Positions 481 to 59,993 of a stretch of DNA of 64,000 nucleotides are shown here, piece after piece (the first letter of the stretch is position 1; each line of letters starts with the position of its first letter). Source of the stretch: a virus. Both the position numbers and the translations under genes were made by a program. The notes below the pieces were generated by a model. That model searched no databases, was not told the origin of the DNA, and saw nothing but the letters and a program-made list of their open reading frames with translations. The stretch lies in IMG/VR virus record IMGVR_UViG_2921643360_000001, positions 1 to 64,000 of that record. The stretch is one strand, 5' to 3'.

Positions 481-1554
481 TCAGCGCGTCGGGCCCACTT
501 TTTCACCTCGGCGCTTCCGAACATAGTGCTCGGTCATGGTAACGGATTCGTGCCCAAGCTGCTTCTGTGCTTCTCGAATGTCGCCCGATGAATCCGCCTT
601 GTCTGTCGCCGCTTTCGCGCGCAAATCGCGTAACTGAAACGAGTTGTCGTCCTTGATGCCCGCCGCCCTTCGGGCGTTCTTGAAGCGCATCTGCATCGCG
701 TTCAGGGTCATCCGTTGGCCCTTCTCGTTGACCACCAGCGCTGTGCTCACGACCTTGTACGACGCCTTGCGGGCTTTGATCCGCTCGATGGCCGTTTTCA
801 GTTCTCCAGCGATCTCCATGCGAATTTTCTTGCCAGTCTTGCCCTGGTCGATCAGAAGGAACCCGTCGCGGATATCTCGCTCGTCAAAATTCAGCGTGTC
901 CTGCGGGCGCTGGCCGGCCAGGTAAGCCAAGTCCATAAAATCCTTGGTCGGCTGGTCGGCCTTCTCATACACGCGCGCAAACAGGTCATCTTCAACGTAG
1001 ACGTCGCGCCCTTCCACCGTGTTCCTCTTGACACCCGTACACGGGTTGGCCGCCTTAGTCAGACCAACTGCGCGAGCCTTGTTGAATATATGGCTGAACA
1101 GCGAGAGTTCCCTGTTAGCGCGCGCATGACCGGCGTTAGGTGGGGCTGCCCTCCCCTTGCTGGCGAACCACTTGACAGACTTCTCATAGCGCCAGCGCAG
1201 ATATGCACTGACATGCATCGGCTCGATCTCGTCGAGGGGTGTGTCGTCTTCGAAGTATTCTTTGAGATTCGCCAACTCCTCCAAGTTGTCTGACTGAGTT
1301 CGCGGCTTCTTGCGGGGCAATTCCTCCCGCAGATAGACGGTCACGGCGTCCCGAAATGTGCTCCCGGCATCTTTCGGCGTATCGGCCTGCTCGATCTCAG
1401 CCCAGCGCGTGACGGCCTTCCGGTAGTCCGTCCCAAGCGACTCCTCGCGTCGAGGTTTGCCGCCGTGGTCGTAGTAATAGTAGATCGTCTCGCCGCGGTG
1501 ACGGGCGCGCATCCCTGGCGGCAAATGAGTGTTGCGCGTCGGCTTCCTGCCCAT
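481..1554 (-). CDS. int: Tyrosine recombinase / phage integrase
   Basis: 357 aa. The C-terminus 'FQLRDLRAKAAT...LGHESVTMTEHYV' fits the R..H-x-x-R..Y catalytic region. It is the terminal gene of the prophage. Confidence 0.9.
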   Translation of the reverse strand: MGRKPTRNTHLPPGMRARHRGETIYYYYDHGGKPRREESLGTDYRKAVTRWAEIEQADTPKDAGSTFRDAVTVYLREELPRKKPRTQSDNLEELANLKEYFEDDTPLDEIEPMHVSAYLRWRYEKSVKWFASKGRAAPPNAGHARANRELSLFSHIFNKARAVGLTKAANPCTGVKRNTVEGRDVYVEDDLFARVYEKADQPTKDFMDLAYLAGQRPQDTLNFDERDIRDGFLLIDQGKTGKKIRMEIAGELKTAIERIKARKASYKVVSTALVVNEKGQRMTLNAMQMRFKNARRAAGIKDDNSFQLRDLRAKAATDKADSSGDIREAQKQLGHESVTMTEHYVRKRRGEKVGPTR

Positions 1555-23881: not shown

Positions 23882-24489
23882 ACCGTCTCCCCAGAAAAAA
23901 GAAGTGCGCAGCTTGCAAGACGGTTTTCGAACCAGCGCGCTCACTCCAGAAAGTGTGTAGCCCCAAGTGTGCCGCCGATTTTGCAGCGAAACAGAAAGCG
24001 CAGAAGTTGGCGAGGGCGAATCGGGAGGAGAGGAAGTCCCTCGCAGAGCGTAAAGCCAAGCTCAAGACTCGCCGCGAGTGGATTGCCGAGGCTCAGGCGG
24101 CATTTAACGCATACGTGCGTGAGCGAGATTACGGGAAGCCATGCATAAGTTGCGGCATCCCGCCGAGGGAAGCTTTCGGCGGCGCTGTTGATTGCGGTCA
24201 TTATCGAAGTGTTGGCAGCGCTTCTCAGCATCGCTTCAATTTAAAAAATTGCGCTGCACAATGTGTCAAATGCAATAGATATTTAGGATCTAATGCCGTC
24301 GAAATGAGGAAAGGACTTATAATTAAGATTGGTCTAGAAGAATTGGAAAATCTAGAGTCAGACCAGACCATCAAGAAGTTCAACATCGAATACCTCGCTC
24401 GCATCAAGCGAGTCTTCCTCAAGAAAGCGCGGCGAGCTAAGGCCCGGAGAAATCATGAGCATAACGAAATGGAATATGCAGCCGGGTGA
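23878..24489 (+). CDS. ninG: NinG/Rap-like recombination protein
   Basis: N-terminal 'KKCAACKTVFEP...VCSPKC' and central 'CISCG...DCGHYRSVG...NCAAQCVKCNRYLGSN' fit lambda NinG. Confidence 0.75.
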   Translation: MNRLPRKKKCAACKTVFEPARSLQKVCSPKCAADFAAKQKAQKLARANREERKSLAERKAKLKTRREWIAEAQAAFNAYVRERDYGKPCISCGIPPREAFGGAVDCGHYRSVGSASQHRFNLKNCAAQCVKCNRYLGSNAVEMRKGLIIKIGLEELENLESDQTIKKFNIEYLARIKRVFLKKARRAKARRNHEHNEMEYAAG

Positions 24490-25264
24490 CCGGTTTTGTC
24501 GGCTGACCTTCAAGAGTGAAGGCGACGGTCGTAAAAATCGGGCGAGATATGGAATCTTCATCTGCGATTGTGGTACCGAGAAAGATGTGGCGTTCTCGCA
24601 CGTTGTTTCGGGAAAAATAAAAAGTTGTGGATGCCTCAAAGCGGAAGATGCCGGTAACAGGCTTCGCACTCATGGGATGCATGGTTCGCCAGAATATACG
24701 GTGTGGCAAGACATGTGGCAGCGCTGCACCAATCCAAAGACGGACAGATATCCGAATTACGGCGGACGGGGCATATCCGTCTGCGAGCGGTGGAAGTCGT
24801 TCGAGAACTTCTTTGCAGACATGGGTCAGCGCCCAGAAGGAACGTCGATAGAGCGAAAGGAGACGAACGGCAACTACGAGCCAAGTAACTGTCGTTGGGC
24901 CACGCCCAAGGAGCAAGGAAGGAATAGAACCAACAACCGTTTTATCGAATACAACGGGGAGAGGAAATGTGTTTCTGAATGGAGCGAGCAATTCGGCATA
25001 CCTCATTCAACGATTAACAATCGACTTCGGCTAGGGTTATCGTTAGATCAGGTTTTTGATGCAAGTGCAGATGGGTTTAAAAAGAAGTCAATCGTTGTCG
25101 ATGGTGTATCGAAGTGCACCAACGAATGGATGCGTGATGCTGGCATACCGATTTCGTCCTTCTATCACTTCCGGCGAAAGGGGCTGACTGAAGAAGAGAT
25201 CGTCAGGAAGTATCTGGCGCGCAAGCAACCCTACTCTCAAACGAATAACGAGGAAGCAGCCTAA
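24455..25264 (+). CDS. HNH-like (degenerate HNH_3-type) free-standing endonuclease paralog 1
   Basis: 'YPNYGGRGISVCERW..FENFFADMGQRPEGTSIERKETNGNYEPSNCRWATPKEQGRN' plus two C-terminal HTH-like repeats. Overlaps the ninG 3' end. Confidence 0.65.
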   Translation: MSITKWNMQPGDRFCRLTFKSEGDGRKNRARYGIFICDCGTEKDVAFSHVVSGKIKSCGCLKAEDAGNRLRTHGMHGSPEYTVWQDMWQRCTNPKTDRYPNYGGRGISVCERWKSFENFFADMGQRPEGTSIERKETNGNYEPSNCRWATPKEQGRNRTNNRFIEYNGERKCVSEWSEQFGIPHSTINNRLRLGLSLDQVFDASADGFKKKSIVVDGVSKCTNEWMRDAGIPISSFYHFRRKGLTEEEIVRKYLARKQPYSQTNNEEAA

Positions 25265-51228: not shown

Positions 51229-51261
51229 CAAGCATGTCTAATCTATTTCGGCTAAAATAGC

Positions 51262-51297
51262 GAGACCCGCTCGGTGCGCTAACACCTTGCGGGCCTC
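51262..51297 (+). promoter_or_regulatory. Conserved leader hairpin of cassette 2
   Basis: GAGACCCGC..GGTG-cgctaa-CACC..GCGGGCCTC, which covaries with the copy at 58737..58773. Confidence 0.55.
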
Positions 51298-51328
51298 TAA
51301 CCACCATCTGCTTTCGAGGAGCAAAACG

Positions 51329-51952
51329 ATGGCTACCAAAGATTTTACCTCAGTTGGCGCAGTATTTTCCCGCCTTACCGTGATAGGTTCGCCAGAGAAG
51401 CGCGACCAGCGCTGGTTCGCGCCCTGCCGTTGCGAATGCGGGGCCGAGAAGTTTGTGCAATGCAAGCATCTTGTGTCCGGCGCGACGGTTTCCTGCGGTT
51501 GCGTGAAAAAGGGGCGACCCAACCTGAAGAATCGGACCCATGGCAATTGCGTTGGCGAGAGCAAGGCTTCTCCAACGTATCTAAGCTGGGTTGCTGCCAA
51601 ATCGCGTTGCGATGATGCCAAGGACCGAGACTATGCGAATTACGGCGGTCGGGGCATTCGCATGTGCGATCGCTGGCGCAATGATTTCTCGACGTTTCTC
51701 GCCGACATGGGCGAGCGGCCCGTTGGCATGACGCTAGACCGCTTCCCGGACACGGACGGCCACTACGAGCCGGGCAATTGCCGCTGGGCGACGAACCGCG
51801 AGCAACAGAATAACCGCCGCAATAATGTCCTCATTGAGCACGGCGGCCAGATGAAAACATGCACGCAGGTCGCCCGCGAATATGGAATCCGCCCCAGTGT
51901 GTTCATTGGCCGCATACGACGAGGATGGTCGGTAGAACGCGCCACATCCTAA
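51329..51952 (+). CDS. HNH-like (degenerate HNH_3-type) endonuclease paralog 2
   Basis: 'YANYGGRGIRMCDRW..FSTFLADMGERPVGMTLDRFPDTDGHYEPGNCRWATNREQQNN'. N-terminal Cys cluster CRCECG..CGC. Confidence 0.65.
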   Translation: MATKDFTSVGAVFSRLTVIGSPEKRDQRWFAPCRCECGAEKFVQCKHLVSGATVSCGCVKKGRPNLKNRTHGNCVGESKASPTYLSWVAAKSRCDDAKDRDYANYGGRGIRMCDRWRNDFSTFLADMGERPVGMTLDRFPDTDGHYEPGNCRWATNREQQNNRRNNVLIEHGGQMKTCTQVAREYGIRPSVFIGRIRRGWSVERATS

Positions 51953-51988
51953 CCTGTCGGCAAATAGATAGCTGACGCTAAAACACCA

Positions 51989-52043
51989 AGCCCGCTAAAC
52001 GCGGGCTTTTTCATTTTCTGGCCCGCCATCGTGCGGGCTTTTT
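51989..52043 (+). terminator. Two tandem rho-independent terminators
   Basis: AGCCCGC-taaac-GCGGGCTTTTT at 51989..52011 and GGCCCGC-catcgt-GCGGGCTTTTT at 52020..52043. Confidence 0.8.
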
Positions 52044-52060: not shown

Positions 52061-53704
52061 ATGGACCGTGTGATTACGTATGTAGGGATGAGCGTATACG
52101 AATGGCTCTTTTCTAAACAAGCGCAAAGCTCGATGGTCGGGCTCTCGAAGCTGTCGGCCGCCATGTTCGGTTCGAATACCGTGGCCAATGGTCTTTCCTG
52201 CGTACCGACCGGCCCCGCTTCGCTGCAAGTCGTCATCAACCCCGGCGAAATCTACTCGTTCGCCAACCTCGAGAACAGCGTCTGCGGAACGCTGCCGACT
52301 GATTCTCACAGCATCATGAAGCAAGGCGTCCTGCTGGATGCTTTTACGACGACTGCTGGTGCGCTTCCCGCGCCAGGCACGGCTGGACAGTCGGTGAACT
52401 ATCTCATCGAAGCCCAGTACGCAGATTCAGACGTCTCGGTCGATCCGACGACGGGCAGCGCGCCTGTCGTGCTTCAGTTCTATAACTCTTCGAATCCCGG
52501 CTCGCCTTGGAGCGGTCCTGGCGGCCTCGGCGGCACGAGCAACACGTTCCGTAAGGGCGTTGTGTCGCTCCAGATCAAGGCAGGTGCCGCGGCAACGACG
52601 GGCAGCCAGACGACGCCCTCACCTGATGCTGGCTGGACTGGGCTGTGGGTCGTGACGGTCGCCAATGGGCAGACACAGATCCTCGCGGGCAACATCACGC
52701 AATACGCAGGCGCGCCAATCCTGCCGTCGTCGATTCTTTCGTCGATCCAAAGCGGAAATATGTCGTATGCGGTCGCAACCGGGTCGGCTAACGCTCACAC
52801 GATCGCCTTGACGCCGGCTCTCACGTCGCGCGTCGACGGCATGATGATCCGCTACAAGGCTCCTGCCGCCAACACGACAGCCGTGACGCTGAACGATGGC
52901 GTCGGAACGGCCAACGTTCTCGGCGCGAACCACGCGGCACTCCAGGGCGGCGAATACATCACCAACGGTGACGCCATTGTCGTCTGGAATAGCTCGATCA
53001 GCGGCGGTTCGTACATCCTCATCGAATGCACTGGCGGCGCCCTCCAAATCCCCCCCGCCACTCAGAGCCAGCATGCTGTGCAGTTGGGGCAGGTGCAGCA
53101 GAACTATGCGTGGAATGGCGGGTTCCAGGCCGTTAGCGCAACCGGGAACTTTACAGTTCCGGCCGGCGTTTATAGATTGCGTTACCGCGTATGGGGTGGC
53201 GGTGGCGGCTCAGGCGGATGTGGGTCGACTGGCCAGACAGCAGGGGGCGCTGGCGGTGGCGGCTACTCCGAGGGAGTCGCTAGCGTAACTCCTGGTCAAA
53301 CTGTGTCATGCACTATTGGAGCAGCAGGTACCGCCGGGGGGGCAGGTGGCTCCGGTGGTACAGGCGGCACTACGTCGTTCACTGCAGGCGCTTTGACGGT
53401 TTCCGCTACCGGCGGGTCTGGAAGTTCAAACGGCATAGGGTCTGGCGGGAATGGAGCAGCCGGTGGCACCGGATCTGGTGGGCAAAACAACCTGACTGGT
53501 GCCGGCGGCTGCTCGGGTTCGGGCTCGACGGGCGGCCCTGGGGGCATGGGTGGTTCGGCCCCCCAAGGCGGTGGCGGTGGCGGTGGCGCAACTGGGACCG
53601 CCCAGTCCGGGCAGACGCCTGGCGGCGGCGCAGGAGGGCCTGGTGCGGCTGGAGCCAACCCGGGCGCCATTGGCGGAGCTGGTCGCATTGTTTTTGAATG
53701 GTGA
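52061..53704 (+). CDS. Tail fibre protein with C-terminal glycine-rich domain
   Basis: 547 aa after the baseplate. C-terminal 'WGGGGGSGGCGSTGQTAGGAGGGGYSEG...GAGRIVFEW'. Confidence 0.7.
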   Translation: MDRVITYVGMSVYEWLFSKQAQSSMVGLSKLSAAMFGSNTVANGLSCVPTGPASLQVVINPGEIYSFANLENSVCGTLPTDSHSIMKQGVLLDAFTTTAGALPAPGTAGQSVNYLIEAQYADSDVSVDPTTGSAPVVLQFYNSSNPGSPWSGPGGLGGTSNTFRKGVVSLQIKAGAAATTGSQTTPSPDAGWTGLWVVTVANGQTQILAGNITQYAGAPILPSSILSSIQSGNMSYAVATGSANAHTIALTPALTSRVDGMMIRYKAPAANTTAVTLNDGVGTANVLGANHAALQGGEYITNGDAIVVWNSSISGGSYILIECTGGALQIPPATQSQHAVQLGQVQQNYAWNGGFQAVSATGNFTVPAGVYRLRYRVWGGGGGSGGCGSTGQTAGGAGGGGYSEGVASVTPGQTVSCTIGAAGTAGGAGGSGGTGGTTSFTAGALTVSATGGSGSSNGIGSGGNGAAGGTGSGGQNNLTGAGGCSGSGSTGGPGGMGGSAPQGGGGGGGATGTAQSGQTPGGGAGGPGAAGANPGAIGGAGRIVFEW

Positions 53705-53928: not shown

Positions 53929-55242
53929 ATGCTTATTTCGAAAATCGGCGGGGCGGTAAATAAGGTAGCGATGTCGGTCAAGCATCGCGTCGTCGGGCGG
54001 GCGATCTCTACGCTAGAGAAACCTCATCAGGCAGTTCCCGATGTCGCGATTCCCGATGTTCCCGAGACGGATGAGTCTGTTCTCGCTCGATCCGAGTCTA
54101 TTATTTCCCGGGCAATTTCTGCTGGCCGATCTGGCAAGCTGACCGTTGTTCCTGAGATGATCTCCGTCGCGGCCACGGAAAACTGCAATCTTAAGTGTGT
54201 TATGTGCCCAGGTCATGCGGGTATGAGCGGTCCGAAACTCTCAGTCAATGAGGCCGAAATGCTATTCGCCTCGCTCGCTGTTGAAGGCCCGCATTTTGGG
54301 TCGCCGAAGATCCTAGACATGACATCTGGTGAGCCCACGCTCAACCCCGACCTAGGGCCAATTTACGGCCGATTCAAAGAACTTTTCCCCGATTCGAAGA
54401 TTTCGATGATAAGCAACGGGACGATCCCCGTTCGCGGTCGAACCCGTGAAGCATTCGAACATGCTGACCGCATCGGTCTTTCGATGGACGGCGCGACGCA
54501 GGAGACGTATGAGCGGATCCGTCAAGGGTCGATATGGAAGAACGTCATTCGCAATGTGATGGACGTTGCTGAAATCAAGAAGTTGGGTGAGAACTGCGAG
54601 ACGTTGCAGATCATGATGGTTGTTATGGACCAGAATATCCATGAACTACCTGAAATGATCCGCCTCGCACATTCCCTTGGAATTCCGCAAGTGTTCGCGC
54701 AGGTTTCTGAGATTCGTACTACCCCCTTCAATATCGCAGGGCAGAACGTTTCGCTTACTCTCTCAAAGGAAAAACTCGCCCCTATAGTACACGAGGCGAA
54801 GCAGGAGGCTCAGCGACTCGGCTTGGATTTGACTCTTACGGCGCATCTGGAAAATTCACTCGTTCCGGATGAGCCAAAGCAACCAGCGACTGCTCAGATG
54901 ACACATGACGAGCGCGCGTTGAGTGTCGCGATTCGAACGTGTAATGTGCCGTGGATGCATGCACCGCGCATTTCGCAAAATCACGATGGGATCTACCCCA
55001 CAACGGTTTGCTGCCATATGCCGAATGTCCATGGCGCTGGCAATTTGGCACGCCGGGAGGAGTTCCGCGGGAAGTCGATCAACGAAATCTTCAACTCGCC
55101 ATACTATTGGGAAATTCGGGCTGGGTTGATGGATGGATCGCTTGCCAATGATGCATGCAAGGGTTGCCAGTATCACCAGATGACGCAGTGGACGGCCACC
55201 CAATTGCGCGAATTGGAAGAGGCCGTCGATGCATCAGTTTGA
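53929..55242 (+). CDS. Radical SAM enzyme with SPASM/twitch-like Cys-rich C-terminus
   Basis: 'ENCNLKCVMCPG' (CxxxCxxC), 'SGEPTLNP' and 'SNGT'. C-terminal Cys pattern CNVPW..VCCH..ACKGC. Visibly lower GC than the flanks. Confidence 0.8.
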   Translation: MLISKIGGAVNKVAMSVKHRVVGRAISTLEKPHQAVPDVAIPDVPETDESVLARSESIISRAISAGRSGKLTVVPEMISVAATENCNLKCVMCPGHAGMSGPKLSVNEAEMLFASLAVEGPHFGSPKILDMTSGEPTLNPDLGPIYGRFKELFPDSKISMISNGTIPVRGRTREAFEHADRIGLSMDGATQETYERIRQGSIWKNVIRNVMDVAEIKKLGENCETLQIMMVVMDQNIHELPEMIRLAHSLGIPQVFAQVSEIRTTPFNIAGQNVSLTLSKEKLAPIVHEAKQEAQRLGLDLTLTAHLENSLVPDEPKQPATAQMTHDERALSVAIRTCNVPWMHAPRISQNHDGIYPTTVCCHMPNVHGAGNLARREEFRGKSINEIFNSPYYWEIRAGLMDGSLANDACKGCQYHQMTQWTATQLRELEEAVDASV

Positions 55243-55706: not shown

Positions 55707-56504
55707 CTAAAATTTTATTTTCAGCTCCAGCGCATCGGCATCATTCCACAGTGGCGGAATTTCGCGCTTGTTGCTGTTGATGCTCATGAAGTAATGCCTG
55801 TAGCTCAAGGTGAGGCGACCGTTTCCTACGGACAGCCCAGCAACGGGCGCGACGGACCAGTAGGCATCGGAAACGCTGATGTCCTGTGCCGTCTGCGTTG
55901 GCCACGCCTTCCACCCGGCGACGTGCTCGGACCACGAGTCACGATGCACATAGGCGCCGACTTCTGCGCCGACGCGGACGCCGTAGACCCAGTAGTACGG
56001 CTCAAGCGTCAGCGCGACACCTTGTGATCGTCCTTCGCCCGTGAAATACGCCTGCGGTACGTCAACCTTACGCGTGTAAGAGTGCGACGATGGGTCGTAA
56101 TTCGCGTCATTCGGCGTGCATGAGCAGTCGGCTGCAGCGCGACCAAGATTGACGTATTCGGCGTGCCAGTCGACGCCCCATTTGCCGCGAGTGATGAGCG
56201 GACCAGTGAAGCCAGCAGAGAAAGCCGGCGGCTTGCTCGTCAGCTTTGAGCCGCCCGGAATGCCCTCCTGGTACCAGCGACCATCGGTCGTGGTGTACTT
56301 GGCCGCGCCAATGCCCAATTCGACCTGAACGTAATCGTTGATGTAATCAGCATGCGCCGACGCAGCGGCACAGCCCAAACTCATCGCAACAGCCGCCGCA
56401 CGCCACCGCGACCCAACGCGGCGATTCGTGCGTGAAGCCGTAACCTGTTGGCGCGGAACTCGGCGACCGCGTGAAGCCTGAACCACCCGATTTTGCGTGT
56501 GCAT
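55707..56504 (-). CDS. Outer-membrane beta-barrel protein (Lom/Ail-like moron)
   Basis: Signal peptide '..AAVAMSLGCAAASAHA|DY', alternating aromatic beta-strands and a C-terminal '...LELKIKF'. Confidence 0.7.
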   Translation of the reverse strand: MHTQNRVVQASRGRRVPRQQVTASRTNRRVGSRWRAAAVAMSLGCAAASAHADYINDYVQVELGIGAAKYTTTDGRWYQEGIPGGSKLTSKPPAFSAGFTGPLITRGKWGVDWHAEYVNLGRAAADCSCTPNDANYDPSSHSYTRKVDVPQAYFTGEGRSQGVALTLEPYYWVYGVRVGAEVGAYVHRDSWSEHVAGWKAWPTQTAQDISVSDAYWSVAPVAGLSVGNGRLTLSYRHYFMSINSNKREIPPLWNDADALELKIKF

Positions 56505-56506
56505 TT

Positions 56507-57187
56507 TTATTCTCCGAGCGCAACTGTCAAATTAGCTGCGTGATTTGCTGTCCAGACGGTTGCGAAAGCTTGCAGCGATGCTTTGCGCTCGTCATAGTCC
56601 TTGCCCAAGCCGATCATTACGGCGTTGCGCTCTTCCAGTCTTGCCAGAAGATCGAGCGCAGTCGTTGACAGGCTGTCGCGCTCAAGAGATTGAAACTTGC
56701 CTGATGCGGCCCAGTTGACCAGCCGCGCCTCATTGGAAAAATGATGCGGAGCGCATGTCTTGCCGATGGCCTCGCGGCTCAATTGCACAATCTGCGACAT
56801 GACCTTGTATGACGCTGCGGCTTCGTGGCGAAGACGTTTCTGGTCAAAGTGCGGATGCTGGCGTGTGATGAGCGCACGAATTTGCCGATCGCACCAGATA
56901 GCGAAGCGCACGTCCAGCCATCGGGCGAATCCAACCGCAAGATCGGGATGAAGCCAAGTTCCGCCGCTCTTGCCGCGCAAGGTGCGAATCCAATTACCAG
57001 ATTCTCCGGTATTTAAGGATTCATCCAAGGCAGCGATGTATTCCTGTGTGGCAGGAAGGGCGAGCCAGTCATTCGGACGCTTGCCGAATTGCGAGGCGAT
57101 GGCTGTCGCATTGAACCAACCTTCGTCAGTAAATGAGACGGCCACGCCTTGGTAGTCTGCGACGATGATTTGCTGTTTGGGGGCCAT
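56507..57187 (-). CDS. KilA-N domain protein
   Basis: 'VSFTDEGWFNATAIASQFGKRPNDWLALPATQEYI...GTWLHPDLAVGFARWLDVRFAIWCD' matches KilA-N. Confidence 0.75.
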   Translation of the reverse strand: MAPKQQIIVADYQGVAVSFTDEGWFNATAIASQFGKRPNDWLALPATQEYIAALDESLNTGESGNWIRTLRGKSGGTWLHPDLAVGFARWLDVRFAIWCDRQIRALITRQHPHFDQKRLRHEAAASYKVMSQIVQLSREAIGKTCAPHHFSNEARLVNWAASGKFQSLERDSLSTTALDLLARLEERNAVMIGLGKDYDERKASLQAFATVWTANHAANLTVALGE

Positions 57188-57212
57188 TACCGCGCTCCCA
57201 TGCTGAATGATG

Positions 57213-57493
57213 CTACTGCGTGTCTTCTCCAGCGGCCTCCGACATGTCCATCGTGGCGCCGACTTTGCGCATTTCGTCGATCACGGCTTCGATATCCCGC
57301 TGCTTGAGCACGAGTTTCGCCATAGCGAAAAACAGCATTTGCGCGCTGATCTTCCTCGGCTCCTTCCCGCCCGTATATTTCCTGAATTGCTTGTCGTCCG
57401 ATACACCGAACAACTCGGCCATCTGGGAGCCGGTATATCCAAGCCGCGCCTTGAGTCGCGCTAGGTCTTCTGGGGTCGGTGCTTCGTAGCGCA
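57213..57493 (-). CDS. XRE-like HTH regulator
   Basis: 'GYTGSQMAELFGVSDDKQFRKYTGG'. ATG at 57493 is preferred over the TTG at 57509. Confidence 0.6.
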
Positions 57494-57595
57494 TTGAGGA
57501 ATCGTCCAAGGCTGCGCGAAAAATCGCGAAATGTTCTTCTCATGATTCTTCCTTTCGGAGTTGTCGGGTTGCCGGATGGCCGCCCTGTGATTGGA

Positions 57596-57625
57596 AGTAT
57601 CAGCCCCGAAGGGGGCATTTGTCAA
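57596..57625 (-). promoter_or_regulatory. Sigma70-like promoter (TTGACA-18-GATACT) for the HTH/KilA-N/OMP operon
   Basis: Read from the minus strand. The spacer contains the hairpin GCCCC-ttc-GGGGC. Confidence 0.5.
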
Positions 57626-57976: not shown

Positions 57977-58014
57977 CCGCTTTATCCCCTGCAACACCGC
58001 TCTAAGGTATAGCC

Positions 58015-58629
58015 ATGCAACTCACAGCACAGATTGTCGCGTCAGGGTGTGGCTCAGCGCTTCTTCGGGCGGCGCAGTGGGTCGCCCCGCTCCAATCCGC
58101 CTGCGACCGCTACCACATCGACACGCCTCTGCGCGTCGCGGCCTTCCTGTCGCAGATCGGCGTCGAGTCTGCCCGCCTCACCGCCCTCGTCGAAAACCTG
58201 AATTACTCGGCAGAGGGTTTGCTCGCAACCTTCCCGAAGTACTTCAACGCAGTGCAGGCGGCGCAGTACGAGCGACAGCCGCAGCGCATCGCGAATCACG
58301 TCTACGCGAATCGGTACGGCAATGGTGACGAGGCGAGCGGAGATGGATTTCGATTTCGCGGCAGAGCGTTGCTCCAGATAACCTTTAGAGACAACTATGC
58401 CTCATGCGGTAAGGCGATTGCGCTGCCTCTCGACTCACATCCTGAGTTGCTTGAGCAACCATGCAATGCGGCGCTCGCGGCTGGCTGGTATTGGGACTCG
58501 CGCAACCTTAACCCGCTGGCCGATGCCGGTCGATTCGAGGGCATCACGCGCGCTATCAACGGCGGGCTCGCAGCGTATTCCGAACGCCTCGCTCTCTATA
58601 GCGCTGCAAAGAAGTCACTCGGTATCTGA
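58015..58629 (+). CDS. Endolysin, glycoside hydrolase family 19 (chitinase-like)
   Basis: 'FLSQIGVESARL...NLNYSAEGL...YANRYGNGDEASGDGFRFRGRALLQITFRDNY...INGG' matches GH19 endolysins. Confidence 0.85.
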   Translation: MQLTAQIVASGCGSALLRAAQWVAPLQSACDRYHIDTPLRVAAFLSQIGVESARLTALVENLNYSAEGLLATFPKYFNAVQAAQYERQPQRIANHVYANRYGNGDEASGDGFRFRGRALLQITFRDNYASCGKAIALPLDSHPELLEQPCNAALAAGWYWDSRNLNPLADAGRFEGITRAINGGLAAYSERLALYSAAKKSLGI

Positions 58630-58736
58630 TTATCCCCTCGCATCCCTCGCTAAGGGATAGCGGCCAAACGGGTAATTTCACGATAACTGCGACACGCGTA
58701 GCTCGATCGTAGTCCGAAATTTTGAGGTAAAATAGC

Positions 58737-58773
58737 GAGAGCGGAAAGGTACTTGCGATACCGATCCGCTCTC
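58737..58773 (+). promoter_or_regulatory. Conserved leader hairpin of cassette 3
   Basis: GAGAGCGGA..GGTA-cttgcga-TACC..TCCGCTCTC, a perfect 9-bp outer stem plus a 4-bp inner stem. Confidence 0.55.
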
Positions 58774-58803
58774 TAACCAAAGCCTGCTTACAAGGAGCAA
58801 ACT

Positions 58804-59472
58804 ATGGCTATCCGCAAGTATATCGCATCTGGCGAAATCCTCCATGGTTGGGTCTACGTCCGAGAGGGCGTGGATCGCGGCAGGACTCGGCACATCTTCG
58901 CAATGTGCCCCTCATGCAAAAACGAAGTCGAAGTAAATGCGACTGAGGTGCGGACTGGAAAAAAGAAAATGTGCCGTCCATGTGCCGACAAATTCAACGG
59001 GGCGAGATGCCTGGTTCATGCAGAAAAGTGGGCGACGCACAGGATGTCAGGTTCGACAACTTACGAATCATGGCGGTCTATGATGAAGCGTTGCTACTTA
59101 GAAAGTGCAACGTTCTATCAATACTACGGCGGAAAAGGGGTCAAAGTTTGCGACCGTTGGCGGGATTCGTTCGCCAATTTCTTTGCTGATATGGGAGAGC
59201 GCCCTGAAGGCATGACCTTGGACAGATACCCCGACAAGAACGGTGACTACGCGCCGGGTAACTGCAGATGGGCAACGCCAACGGAACAGATTCGCAACAG
59301 AAATACCACGGTGTATATTGAGTTCCGGGGGTTGCGCAAAACGATGAAGGAATGGGCGGATGAAATTGGTGTCGCCTACAAGACATTACGCGCAAGGATA
59401 GTTGACCAAGGATGGCCAATAGACCGCGCACTTACTACGCCGCTGCGGATCCACAGAAAGCACGTCCCATAA
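58804..59472 (+). CDS. HNH-like (degenerate HNH_3-type) endonuclease paralog 3
   Basis: 'YQYYGGKGVKVCDRW..FANFFADMGERPEGMTLDRYPDKNGDYAPGNCRWATPTEQIRN'. N-terminal CPSC..CRPC. Confidence 0.65.
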   Translation: MAIRKYIASGEILHGWVYVREGVDRGRTRHIFAMCPSCKNEVEVNATEVRTGKKKMCRPCADKFNGARCLVHAEKWATHRMSGSTTYESWRSMMKRCYLESATFYQYYGGKGVKVCDRWRDSFANFFADMGERPEGMTLDRYPDKNGDYAPGNCRWATPTEQIRNRNTTVYIEFRGLRKTMKEWADEIGVAYKTLRARIVDQGWPIDRALTTPLRIHRKHVP

Positions 59473-59497
59473 ATCAAAGAAGTCGCTGCGACTGACA

Positions 59498-59526
59498 AGC
59501 CCGCCATTGTGCGGGCTTTTTGTTTT
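59498..59526 (+). terminator. Rho-independent terminator of cassette 3
   Basis: AGCCCGC-cattgt-GCGGGCT followed by TTTTGTTTT. Confidence 0.8.
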
Positions 59527-59546: not shown

Positions 59547-59993
59547 ATGCCAACACCTCTACTCCGTGACGCGGGGTCAAGCGGCAGTGTGACCGGCGCG
59601 AATGCTATTGCCAACAACGCCTATTCCAATAGCGCGGACAAGTTGCGGATTCAGTTAAGCGCGATCGGAACAAACTATCTGCTGGCTGATTTCCGGCTTA
59701 CTTCTGCCACATTCGCCAGCGCTCCGACGACTGGCGTTATCCAGCTTGCAAAAGTCCCGCGCGACTTCAGCGGAAACGCAGGGCCGACGCCCTCTGCTTC
59801 GATGCTGGCGACGCAGATCTATACGATGGGACCCGCCCCCTCAACCGGGAACGCCTCAACAAGCTGGGTCATGTCCGTCGATTCGGTCCCGCTCGATGCT
59901 GATGCGGACTACTGGGTCTTCAACAACGCAACCGGCGTTTCTCTCAACTCGGGATGGGTGCTTACCTATGTCCCGTGGTCACCTGGAACGTAA
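59547..59993 (+). CDS. Hypothetical structural-type protein
   Basis: 148 aa, S/T/A/N-rich beta-type sequence. First gene of the distal cluster. Confidence 0.5.
   Translation: MPTPLLRDAGSSGSVTGANAIANNAYSNSADKLRIQLSAIGTNYLLADFRLTSATFASAPTTGVIQLAKVPRDFSGNAGPTPSASMLATQIYTMGPAPSTGNASTSWVMSVDSVPLDADADYWVFNNATGVSLNSGWVLTYVPWSPGT

Follow-up and report, generated by a model that had tools for sequence, protein, structure and literature searches.

Results

The window analysed here is a 64,000-nt stretch of viral DNA (positions 1 to 64,000 of IMG/VR record IMGVR_UViG_2921643360_000001). Two of its plus-strand ORFs, one of 207 aa at 51329–51952 (cassette 2) and one of 222 aa at 58804–59472 (cassette 3), are of the PHROG 374/3377 ‘HNH endonuclease’ type; neither has a Pfam match, and only PHROG families labelled HNH endonuclease match them. 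Both cassettes are closed by intrinsic terminators on the plus strand, two in tandem for cassette 2 (51988–52039) and one for cassette 3 (59497–59518), with the second of the tandem pair identical to the latter at 23 of 24 positions. A block of minus-strand genes lies near cassette 3 (55707–57618), and a third paralogous ORF (24455–25264) is without the leader module described below.

Each leader holds a hairpin: GAGACCCGC-TC-GGTG-CGCTAA-CACC-TT-GCGGGCCTC at 51262–51297 in cassette 2 and GAGAGCGGA-AA-GGTA-CTTGCGA-TACC-GA-TCCGCTCTC at 58737–58773 in cassette 3. The coordinates and sequences in the original prediction agree with the letters, and the identical flanking boxes that it described, TAAAATAGCGAGA and CTCTAACCA, are each present at these two sites and nowhere else in the window. 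All its compensatory changes are likewise correct, both the three of the outer stem and the single one of the inner stem; overlooked in its description of the stem was an A·C mismatch on the plus strand at outer-stem position 4 of cassette 2, which is a G·U pair on the minus strand. Compared with shuffled sequence, the two hairpins are unusually stable, at −20.5 kcal/mol (z −5.8) and −19.2 kcal/mol (z −4.1).

A search for homologous leaders and a covariation analysis had been proposed as the check on this hairpin, and we ran both. About 30 further distinct copies were collected from viral, genome and metagenome contigs, some 25 hairpin-bearing ones among them by an exact-box pattern applied to three public collections; the remaining pattern matches, on cyanobacterial, archaeal and other contigs, were without the hairpin and are chance matches. 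Across a 25-sequence alignment, 95.3% of stem cells were paired, compared with 70.0% after shuffling (0 of 500 shuffles reached the observed value), and 77 cells had changed on both sides, compared with 22.5 in shuffles. Shifting the 3′ partner by 1–3 columns dropped pairing to 37–47%. The covarying hairpin is therefore real.

Because the pattern fixed both boxes in 25 of the 33 copies, conservation of the boxes themselves is assessable only in six copies retrieved through their proteins rather than by DNA pattern (L057, L058, L071, L126, L134 and L139) and in the two characterized RNAs, SymR and RepX, discussed below. All six protein-retrieved copies keep two hairpins and a U-rich tail.

We then asked which strand is under selection. 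In a strand-neutral, ungapped count over the first 9 stem positions, 30 mismatches read as G·U on the minus strand, compared with 4 that do so on the plus strand (binomial 6e-6, with shared ancestry ignored); the G·U at position 4 recurs among related copies, and nearly all plus-strand stem mismatches are A·C. Minimum-free-energy folds, again ignoring shared ancestry, contain 161 G·U among 846 pairs on the minus strand against 22 among 669 on the plus strand. The minus-strand RNA folds into two clean hairpins and in 31 of 32 copies exceeds the plus strand in stability (mean −37.1 versus −27.1 kcal/mol, Wilcoxon 9e-7). The strand under selection is the minus strand. Selection on RNA pairing between the TAAAAT box and the Shine–Dalgarno sequence (SD), as originally proposed, is thus borne out by the covariation; the strand on which it had been assumed to act is contradicted by the G·U asymmetry and the stability.

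These data also bear on an element acting as DNA, whether a cruciform, which had been one of the original options, or a recombination or homing site at the cassette boundaries comparable to integron attC. Such an element would fit the finding that the same leader block and the same terminator enclose unrelated ORFs in two relatives (L005 and L006), and CTCTAAC may loosely resemble an attC inverse core site. The stem sequence varies freely while pairing is kept, however, and a strand-specific G·U asymmetry is expected neither from double-stranded DNA nor from protein recognition; no second complementary core site is present, and the cassettes have no linked integrase-type partner. We rejected an attC-like recombination site on the missing second core site and the strand-specific constraint, and regard any DNA-level role as extremely improbable.

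Read on the minus strand, the leader resolves into the parts of a small RNA gene. For cassette 3, the predicted antisense RNA is ~82 nt long (58728–58809, minus strand), runs from 5′-AGCCAU... to ...CUCGCUAUUUUA-3′, folds into two hairpins at −38.3 kcal/mol and spans codons 1–2, the SD and the leader of ORF 58804–59472, its predicted target. A model of our own, built only from the phage copies (model R1), matches this region at 58726–58809 on the minus strand with 72.2 bits (filters off). The corresponding ~82-nt RNA of cassette 2 (51253–51334, minus strand; fold −41.0 kcal/mol) lies within an R1 match at 51251–51334 of 78.4 bits, and an R1 search with filters off found no copies in the window beyond these two.

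Stem-loop I of cassette 3 (58775–58809, minus strand) is closed by AGCCA:UGGUU pairs and presents an anti-SD in a 7-nt loop, CCUUGUA; that of cassette 2 (51299–51334, minus strand) does so in the loop CCUCGAA. Here AGCCAU, the complement of ATGGCT, is the predicted antisense 5′ end, and UGGUU, complementary to the AACCA box, forms the other side of the stem. Across the 32 copies the anti-SD lies in or beside the loop of stem-loop I, usually of 7 nt, and the mean z of this hairpin is −2.8, with 23 of 32 copies below −2. The hairpin originally reported becomes stem-loop II (58737–58773 in cassette 3 and 51262–51297 in cassette 2, both minus strand), with 9 bp, a 2×2 internal loop and an upper stem of 4–5 bp in cassette 3; in cassette 2 the plus-strand A·C mismatch is here a G·U pair. 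It is followed in cassette 3 by the 3′ tail GCUAUUUUA (58728–58736, minus strand), the complement of the TAAAATAGC box and a candidate terminator U-tract that may be a weak sense −10 as well. One of the ‘identical boxes’ thus corresponds to the U-rich tail of the predicted antisense RNA, the other to the spacer and the 3′ half of stem-loop I.

Promoter-like and terminator-like signals surround this unit. In 20 of 32 copies, against ~3% expected by chance (p 2e-23), a TANNNT hexamer precedes the AGCCAT 5′ end by 5–8 nt, in 15 of them by exactly 7 nt. This −10-like hexamer falls within ORF codons 4–6; the predicted antisense −10 elements of the window, TATACT at 58817–58822 for cassette 3 and TAAAAT at 51342–51347 for cassette 2 (both minus strand), each lie inside codons 5–7 of the ORF, with a spacing of 7 nt to the antisense 5′ A. 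Their −35 regions are weak (2/6 matches, read by eye, for cassette 2). Five of the six protein-retrieved copies have TANNNT 6–7 nt from the antisense start; L134 has only GATATC/TGATAT, further upstream of it. Of the 9 nt in the tail GCUAUUUUA, which begins 3 nt past the strong stem, 5 are U, and a simple consensus terminator scan gave no call; the tail is U-rich in every copy retrieved without the pattern, reaching U8 in L057. The conserved block shared by cassette 2 and L033 begins exactly at the TAAAAT box and ends ~107 nt on, boundaries that delimit the putative antisense gene together with its promoter.

In all copies the minus strand has a GC-rich stem with a U-rich tail after it. This could also be a bare terminator, with no regulatory RNA of its own, that shields the cassette and the late genes upstream from convergent transcription; minus-strand genes do lie nearby, at 55707–57618. 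We think this highly unlikely: insulation needs neither a hexamer fixed 7 nt from AGCCAU nor a stem-loop I with an anti-SD loop, and the 80 nt before the terminator are always a translation-initiation region.

A minus-strand RNA gene of this architecture has known counterparts. Rfam gave no match at gathering thresholds over the whole window; the following matches emerged only in E-value mode on 151-nt slices. Rfam SymR (RF01809) matched cassette 2 at 51259–51334 on the minus strand over its full model length (44.5 bits, E 8.7e-8) and L006 with 41 bits, both below the SymR gathering score of 61 bits, and gave no match to cassette 3 at E up to 10. Rfam R1162 (RF00043) scored 29.3 bits for cassette 3, 23.2 for cassette 2 and 38.3 for L057, against a gathering score of 55; these matches are on the sense strand, the Rfam consensus being written in mRNA orientation. 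In the reciprocal direction, a search with model R1 recovered the SymR locus of E. coli, in the right orientation (36 bits, E 1.7e-6), as well as RSF1010-type RepX (23 bits, E 0.004); these E-values are rough. Aligned together, symE, repA and cassette 2 have in common AGCG-hairpin-TAAYCAC-SD hairpin-ATGRCT, and symE and cassette 2 also have the loop GUGUURGCGCAC. The element is, on these sequence and fold comparisons, related to both SymR and RepX. Full-text literature searches returned no publication that links SymR or RepX to phage HNH cassettes.

SymR is the 77-nt cis-antisense RNA of the E. coli symE/symR type I toxin–antitoxin locus and forms two stem-loops, as the cassette RNAs are predicted to do. 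It lies across the ribosome-binding site and AUG of symE, whose translation it represses (PMC4147584). Its 5′ end lies a few nucleotides inside the target ORF (AGUCAU, compared with AGCCAU in the cassettes), and the geometry of a −10 hexamer in coding sequence, then 7 nt, then AGYCAU is identical to that predicted here (TAGAAT in SymR; the −10 geometry recurs in RepX with TAGGCT). The AUG, SD and leader of the target are covered by SymR and, as predicted, by the cassette RNAs, the stem-loop II loop is almost the same as in cassette 2 (GUGUUGGCGCAC versus GUGUUAGCGCAC), the spacers are close (GAUUAG versus GGUUAG), and the target in each case is a potentially harmful nuclease or nuclease-like protein. 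The systems differ in that the target of SymR is the SOS-induced SymE toxin, whereas those of the cassettes are PHROG 374/3377 HNH-like phage proteins with no LexA box (CTG-N10-CAG or GAAC-N7-GAAC) within 120 nt upstream. The tails differ too (AUUUUA in the cassettes, AAAUAU in SymR), and the cassettes occupy a prophage moron or homing-endonuclease setting with a terminator of their own.

RepX is a 75-nt antisense RNA with two stem-loops joined by a GUUA spacer, lying over the repA ribosome-binding site and AUG (PMC8136791); the folds of both cassettes show the same two stem-loops and GUUA-type spacer. The repA leader is very near that of cassette 2 (CCTAACCACCAACTGCCTGCAAAGGAGGCAATCAATGGCTACC versus CTCTAACCACCATCTGCTTTCGAGGAGCAAAACGATGGCTACC), and repA and the cassette 2 ORF both begin M-A-T. 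Unlike the cassettes, RepX controls a replication helicase and plasmid copy number (IncQ, repA-repC); the window is a prophage-like myovirus rather than an IncQ replicon, and its target ORFs are not helicases. The RSF1010 hairpin lies within the upstream ORF F, without the A/T box, and RepX is without the U-rich tail. FinP of the F plasmid (target traJ), termed RepX-like by El Mouali et al. (PMC8136791), is likewise a two-stem-loop antisense RNA over a target ribosome-binding site, but no sequence relationship to the cassettes was found, and no FinP-type family is among the Rfam matches of the two elements. With type I toxin–antitoxin loci the cassettes have in common a predicted cis-encoded antisense arrangement.

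The original prediction had instead read the hairpin as part of the sense mRNA, just past a −10-like TAAAAT box, where it might be a stabiliser, an attenuator, a processing site or a binding site for the cassette protein. TAAAAT is exact in 4 of 5 copies first found by protein homology, and a start ~7 nt downstream of the box would place the hairpin at the 5′ extremity of the mRNA. In relatives, an extended −10 TG precedes the box in 8 of 29 copies (p 3e-4) and a −35 with at least 5/6 matches in 8 of 29 (background 2.5%). The sense strand folds too, with z between −4 and −6. The two window copies, by contrast, have neither feature: their best −35 is 2–3/6, there is no TGn, and the consensus scan lists neither site. 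In L057 an A8 run, which cannot be a −10, takes the place of TAAAAT, and the RSF1010 hairpin sits inside an upstream ORF with no adjoining promoter. It is on the sense strand that the mismatches read A·C, and its fold is weaker by ~10 kcal/mol in 31 of 32 copies. A sense element also leaves the conserved ATGGCT, the AACCA box and the in-ORF −10-like hexamer unexplained, and the homologous SymR and RepX regions are experimentally established antisense RNA genes (PMC4147584, PMC8136791).

We consider a hairpin acting within the sense mRNA very unlikely; the G·U asymmetry, the stability, the hexamer and the SymR/RepX matches together oppose an attenuator, processing site or protein-binding site there. 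Because relatives often have the extended −10 TG or a good −35, the TAAAAT box may nonetheless double as a sense promoter.

Three further candidates were rejected. A promoter for a T7-type single-subunit RNA polymerase, suggested by the resemblance of AATAGCGAGA to TATAGGGAGA, is at odds with a largest window ORF of 578 aa, too short for such an enzyme, and with no conservation upstream of TAAAAT. The rrn boxA is CUCUUUAACAA, and boxA/boxB antitermination had been considered for CUCUAACCA; it was dropped because the box is explained as the 3′ half of stem-loop I. An RNase III site would need a longer helix than this one, which has 13 bp and an internal loop, and it would leave the strand asymmetry unexplained.

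The leader module is not tied to one kind of gene: it occurs ahead of unrelated nuclease and moron genes, L005 and L006 carry unrelated ORFs between the same leader block and terminator, and Pfam HNH_3 is passed by other cargo ORFs (L002, L005, L028 and L035). Like phage morons, which are promoter–gene–terminator units set between phage genes, the cassette is a discrete unit between late genes with a strong terminator at its end and a sporadic distribution among related phages; it differs from them in its predicted antisense RNA gene at the 5′ end and, for the window copies, in having no evident sense promoter. In the closest relatives, L136 and L142, homology ends 15 nt past the endolysin stop and other DNA follows; a clean empty site beside the endolysin was not found. 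Searches by blastn gave no element match among INPHARED phages (region and 121-nt elements) or PLSDB plasmids (cassette 2 element and L051 copy).

Discussion

The G·U asymmetry, the greater minus-strand stability, the fixed hexamer and the reciprocal SymR and RepX matches lead us to identify the hairpin as stem-loop II of a cis-antisense RNA. With a probability that we put at roughly 85%, it is the terminator stem-loop of a ~80-nt minus-strand RNA of the SymR/RepX type that silences the nuclease-like gene. The link to control of the cassette gene drawn in the original prediction is retained, with a cis-antisense RNA in place of an mRNA element.

From these features we infer production of the RNA, its exact ends, repression of translation and a biological purpose, as follows. 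An antisense promoter, with its −10-like hexamer within the first codons of the nuclease-like ORF, would start transcription at the A that faces the T of codon 2, so that the RNA begins 5′-AGCCAU. The RNA would extend back over the start codon, SD and leader, forming stem-loop I with the anti-SD in its 7-nt loop, a short UUA-type spacer and stem-loop II, and would end at GCUAUUUUA. It would be perfectly complementary to the mRNA leader, with first contact most likely a loop–loop interaction with the mRNA hairpins, so that the complementary mRNA hairpin probably still matters as a first-contact loop. The resulting duplex would occlude the SD and AUG and block translation, as experiments have demonstrated for SymR/symE and RepX/repA. 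The nuclease or moron gene would then stay silent in the lysogen and against read-through, and protein would be made only when sense transcripts exceed the antisense RNA.

Free-standing homing-endonuclease and moron genes of temperate phages need to be silent in the lysogen, and the usual controls on them are mostly promoter timing or hairpins that sequester the ribosome-binding site. A SymR/RepX-type antisense RNA would be a different, directly testable control of phage nuclease genes, and it would link two RNAs so far viewed as stand-alone cases, one the antitoxin of a chromosomal type I locus and the other a regulator of IncQ copy number, to a much larger proteobacterial phage and prophage family that is absent from Rfam. 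For annotation, the hairpin, the boxes and the ATGGCT start would become a minus-strand non-coding RNA gene instead of a promoter and 5′ UTR, and the regulatory unit would overlap coding sequence, its promoter lying within the first codons of any ORF attached to it.

We give even odds to a broader proposal, that the ~105-nt block is a portable ‘safety-catch’ module, made of an antisense promoter in the first codons, stem-loop I, spacer, stem-loop II and tail, which has been repeatedly recombined onto unrelated, often dangerous genes, with symE/symR and the IncQ RNA as domesticated members of the superfamily. If this is true, its cargo would include four or more kinds of HNH-type nuclease, a GDSL lipoprotein and functionally uncharacterized acidic proteins; the SymE toxin and the IncQ RepA helicase would be more distant examples. 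The N-termini of the cargo proteins, M-A-x-x-D/N-x-T, would then be set by the RNA gene and not by protein function, and the cassettes would belong to one widespread superfamily of mobile, antisense-controlled expression cassettes.

Paired leader elements in cassettes 2 and 3

The leaders of two HNH-like genes, cassette 2 (ORF 51329..51952, + strand) and cassette 3 (ORF 58804..59472, + strand), each contain a hairpin at exactly the position given in the original prediction (51262-51297 and 58737-58773, respectively), and both exceed shuffled sequence in stability by a wide margin (z −5.8 and −4.1). The flanking boxes TAAAATAGCGAGA and CTCTAACCA are indeed the same in both cassettes and have no further site within the window. 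The compensatory changes listed for the outer and inner stems are correct, but an A·C at outer-stem position 4 of cassette 2 (+ strand) had been overlooked. Also common to the two cassettes, and absent from that prediction, are the SD-region motif CTGCTTnnnAGGAGCAAA, the start ATGGCTA and an almost identical terminator after the ORF. Tandem intrinsic terminators follow cassette 2 (51988-52039, the second being 52020-52039) and a single one follows cassette 3 (59497-59518); the second of the tandem pair matches the latter at 23/24 positions, despite only 36% amino acid identity between the encoded proteins. Late genes lie directly downstream of these strong terminators (ORFs at 52061, tail-fibre-like, and at 59547), so late transcription would need antitermination or separate promoters.

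Searching viral, genome and metagenome collections with the exact-box pattern TAAAATAGCGAG-N18-36-CTCTAACC yielded some 25 distinct copies that form a strong hairpin; the remaining matches, which had no hairpin, were chance. Hosts named for the real copies were Paraburkholderia, Bradyrhizobium, Hyphomicrobium and Aestuariivirga. Across the alignment of homologous copies, the stem sequence changes freely while pairing is kept: 95.3% of cells were paired compared with 70.0% in shuffles (0/500 shuffles reached the observed value), and 77 cells were altered on both sides compared with 22.5. Shifting the 3′ partner by 1–3 columns as a control left only 37–47% of cells paired. The covariation proposed from two sequences therefore holds well beyond them.

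The conserved fold lies on the minus strand

Non-Watson–Crick stem positions on the + strand were nearly all A·C or C·A, which is G·U on the minus strand. When the first nine stem positions of the 32 copies were counted without gaps and in a strand-neutral way, 30 were G·U on the minus strand versus 4 on the plus (binomial 6e-6, uncorrected for ancestry). With the whole element folded at minimum free energy, G·U made up 161/846 pairs on the minus strand and 22/669 on the plus, also uncorrected for ancestry, and was commoner on the minus strand in all 32 copies; the asymmetry recurs at many points along the stem and in subgroups that are unrelated. All but one of the 32 copies fold more stably as minus-strand RNA (mean −37.1 versus −27.1 kcal/mol), and this RNA always forms two clean hairpins with a single-stranded tail behind them. 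A hairpin acting in cis in the sense RNA accounts for fewer features than an antisense RNA does, as does a site acting at the DNA level.

Read on the minus strand, each conserved box has a role in a predicted antisense RNA of ~80 nt, laid out as 5′-AGCCAU ... anti-SD ... (G)UGGUU-A-GAG[stem]CUC-GCUAUUUUA-3′. ATGGCT is the complement of its predicted 5′ end. Stem-loop I, on the SD/AUG side, is closed by AGCCA:UGGUU pairing, UGGUU being the complement of the AACCA box, and holds the anti-SD sequence in its loop, usually of 7 nt (mean z −2.8). The hairpin first described is stem-loop II, and the U-rich tail is complementary to TAAAATAGC. Taking the element as a bare terminator explains fewer of its features than the antisense RNA, for which a −10-like TANNNT lies 5–8 nt upstream of AGCCAT in 20/32 copies, at exactly 7 nt in 15 (chance ~3%; p 2e-23). 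The window hexamers, TAAAAT in cassette 2 (51347-51342, minus strand) and TATACT in cassette 3 (58822-58817, minus strand), fall inside ORF codons 5–7; this would explain why unrelated cargo proteins start M-A-x-x-(D/N)-x-T.

Diverged elements were also found without the pattern, in 5/80 loci retrieved by HNH-like protein homology (L057, L058, L071, L126 and L134) and in 1/80 retrieved by endolysin (L139). All six keep the two hairpins and the U-rich tail (U8 on the minus strand in L057, A8 on the plus) and have a −10-like hexamer close to where the antisense RNA would start. This is TANNNT at 6–7 nt in five, the exception being L134, with only GATATC/TGATAT further upstream. The closest endolysin relatives have no element, so the module is sporadic.

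A probable SymR/RepX-type RNA

With Rfam in E-value mode, cassette 2 matched SymR, the antisense RNA to E. coli symE, over its full length on the minus strand (44.5 bits, E 8.7e-8; gathering score 61), and cassettes 3 and 2 matched the R1162 antisense RNA on the plus strand (29.3 and 23.2 bits; gathering score 55), so that the window elements fall under the gathering scores of both families. The R1162 matches are on the plus strand because the RF00043 consensus is in the mRNA-sense orientation of the repA leader, with an SD (GGAG) and AUGGCUAC (retrieved locus L055, 401-475); matches to RF00043 in general appear on the other strand from the real RepX RNA.

Compared directly, E. coli symE/symR, the repA leader of an RSF1010-type plasmid and cassette 2 all have the order AGCG-hairpin-TAAYCAC-SD hairpin-ATGRCT. 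In SymR, RepX and cassette 2 alike, a −10 hexamer sits within the ORF, 7 nt from AGYCAU, and SymR and cassette 2 have the same stem-loop II loop, GUGUURGCGCAC. In reverse, a covariance model built solely from the 25 phage copies recovered both SymR, with the strand correctly assigned (36 bits, E 1.7e-6), and RepX (23 bits, E 0.004). The element is of a known kind, a predicted SymR/RepX-type cis-antisense RNA. SymR covers the ribosome-binding site and AUG of symE, and its main effect is on translation (PMC4147584). RepX, a FinO ligand, is a 75-nt antisense RNA of two stem-loops with a GUUA spacer that spans the ribosome-binding site and AUG of repA (PMC8136791).

Sense transcription, cargo and phage context

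The + strand TAAAAT box may also serve a sense promoter in some relatives: an extended −10 TG at the box (8/29 copies, p 3e-4) and a −35 with at least 5/6 matches (8/29; background 2.5%) make its double use plausible there. A Hyphomicrobiales subgroup (L011, L012, L015, L024, L031, L051 and L052) has a strong −35 (TTGACT or TTGACA) 19–20 nt upstream of the box. Neither window copy has an extended −10 TG or a −35 with at least 5/6 matches, and a promoter scan called neither; the A8 replacing TAAAAT in L057 cannot serve as a −10. No + strand terminator separates the window elements from the upstream late genes, and read-through from these probably supplies sense transcripts. An inverted repeat, ATTCG-N5-CGAAT, directly upstream of the box in L005 (13350-13390) and L006 (minus strand) might serve as operator of a sense promoter.

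The module accompanies PHROG374-type proteins, Pfam HNH_3 proteins alone or with AP2 or NUMOD4, one GDSL lipoprotein, and acidic or unknown proteins. L005 and L006 carry unrelated nuclease ORFs in one genomic slot, homologous only in a ~105-nt leader block and in the terminator and downstream gene. Homology between cassette 2 and L033 begins exactly with the initial T of the TAAAAT box and runs to +107, the span of the predicted antisense gene with its promoter. Cargo ORFs of the Hyphomicrobiales subgroup are unrelated to nucleases and had no Pfam matches; that of L012 is highly acidic and carries repeated EPSLGS motifs.

The window is a prophage-like myovirus, with integrase, terminase, portal, capsid, sheath, baseplate, tail fibre and GH19 endolysin genes; a tyrosine-integrase-like ORF near its left end (481-1554, minus strand) is consistent with an integrated prophage. 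Its endolysin region (58004-58610) is 76% identical in DNA to a contig of Paraburkholderia sp. Tr-20389 (L014) that also has the element, and this similarity suggests a Burkholderiaceae host. Three paralogous ORFs are of PHROG 374/3377 type, both labelled HNH endonuclease, and gave no Pfam matches. Late genes lie on either side of cassettes 2 and 3. The third paralogue (24455-25264), 39% identical to cassette 3, adjoins its neighbouring ORFs and has no comparable leader, antisense module, TAAAAT/AACCA boxes or terminator of its own. Between the tail-fibre and lysis genes there are also a radical-SAM-like ORF (53929-55242) and a three-gene minus-strand block (55707-57618) including a transcriptional-regulator-like ORF (56507-57187).

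Discussion

The most likely mechanism, to which we give a probability of roughly 85%, is that a constitutive antisense RNA of ~80 nt would base-pair with the mRNA leader, probably beginning at complementary loops, and would block ribosome binding. Fold, strand, −10-like hexamer, tail and kinship with SymR and RepX are direct results of the analysis; transcription, the ends of the RNA, repression and biological purpose are inferred from them. At the blastn level, INPHARED phages gave no match to the elements and PLSDB plasmids none to the cassette 2 element or an L051 copy, and we found no paper linking a SymR/RepX-type RNA to phage nuclease or moron cassettes. What is new relative to the known systems is the setting, phage nuclease and moron cassettes in place of symE or repA, where the RNA may set a threshold for expressing a nuclease or moron gene that could be harmful.
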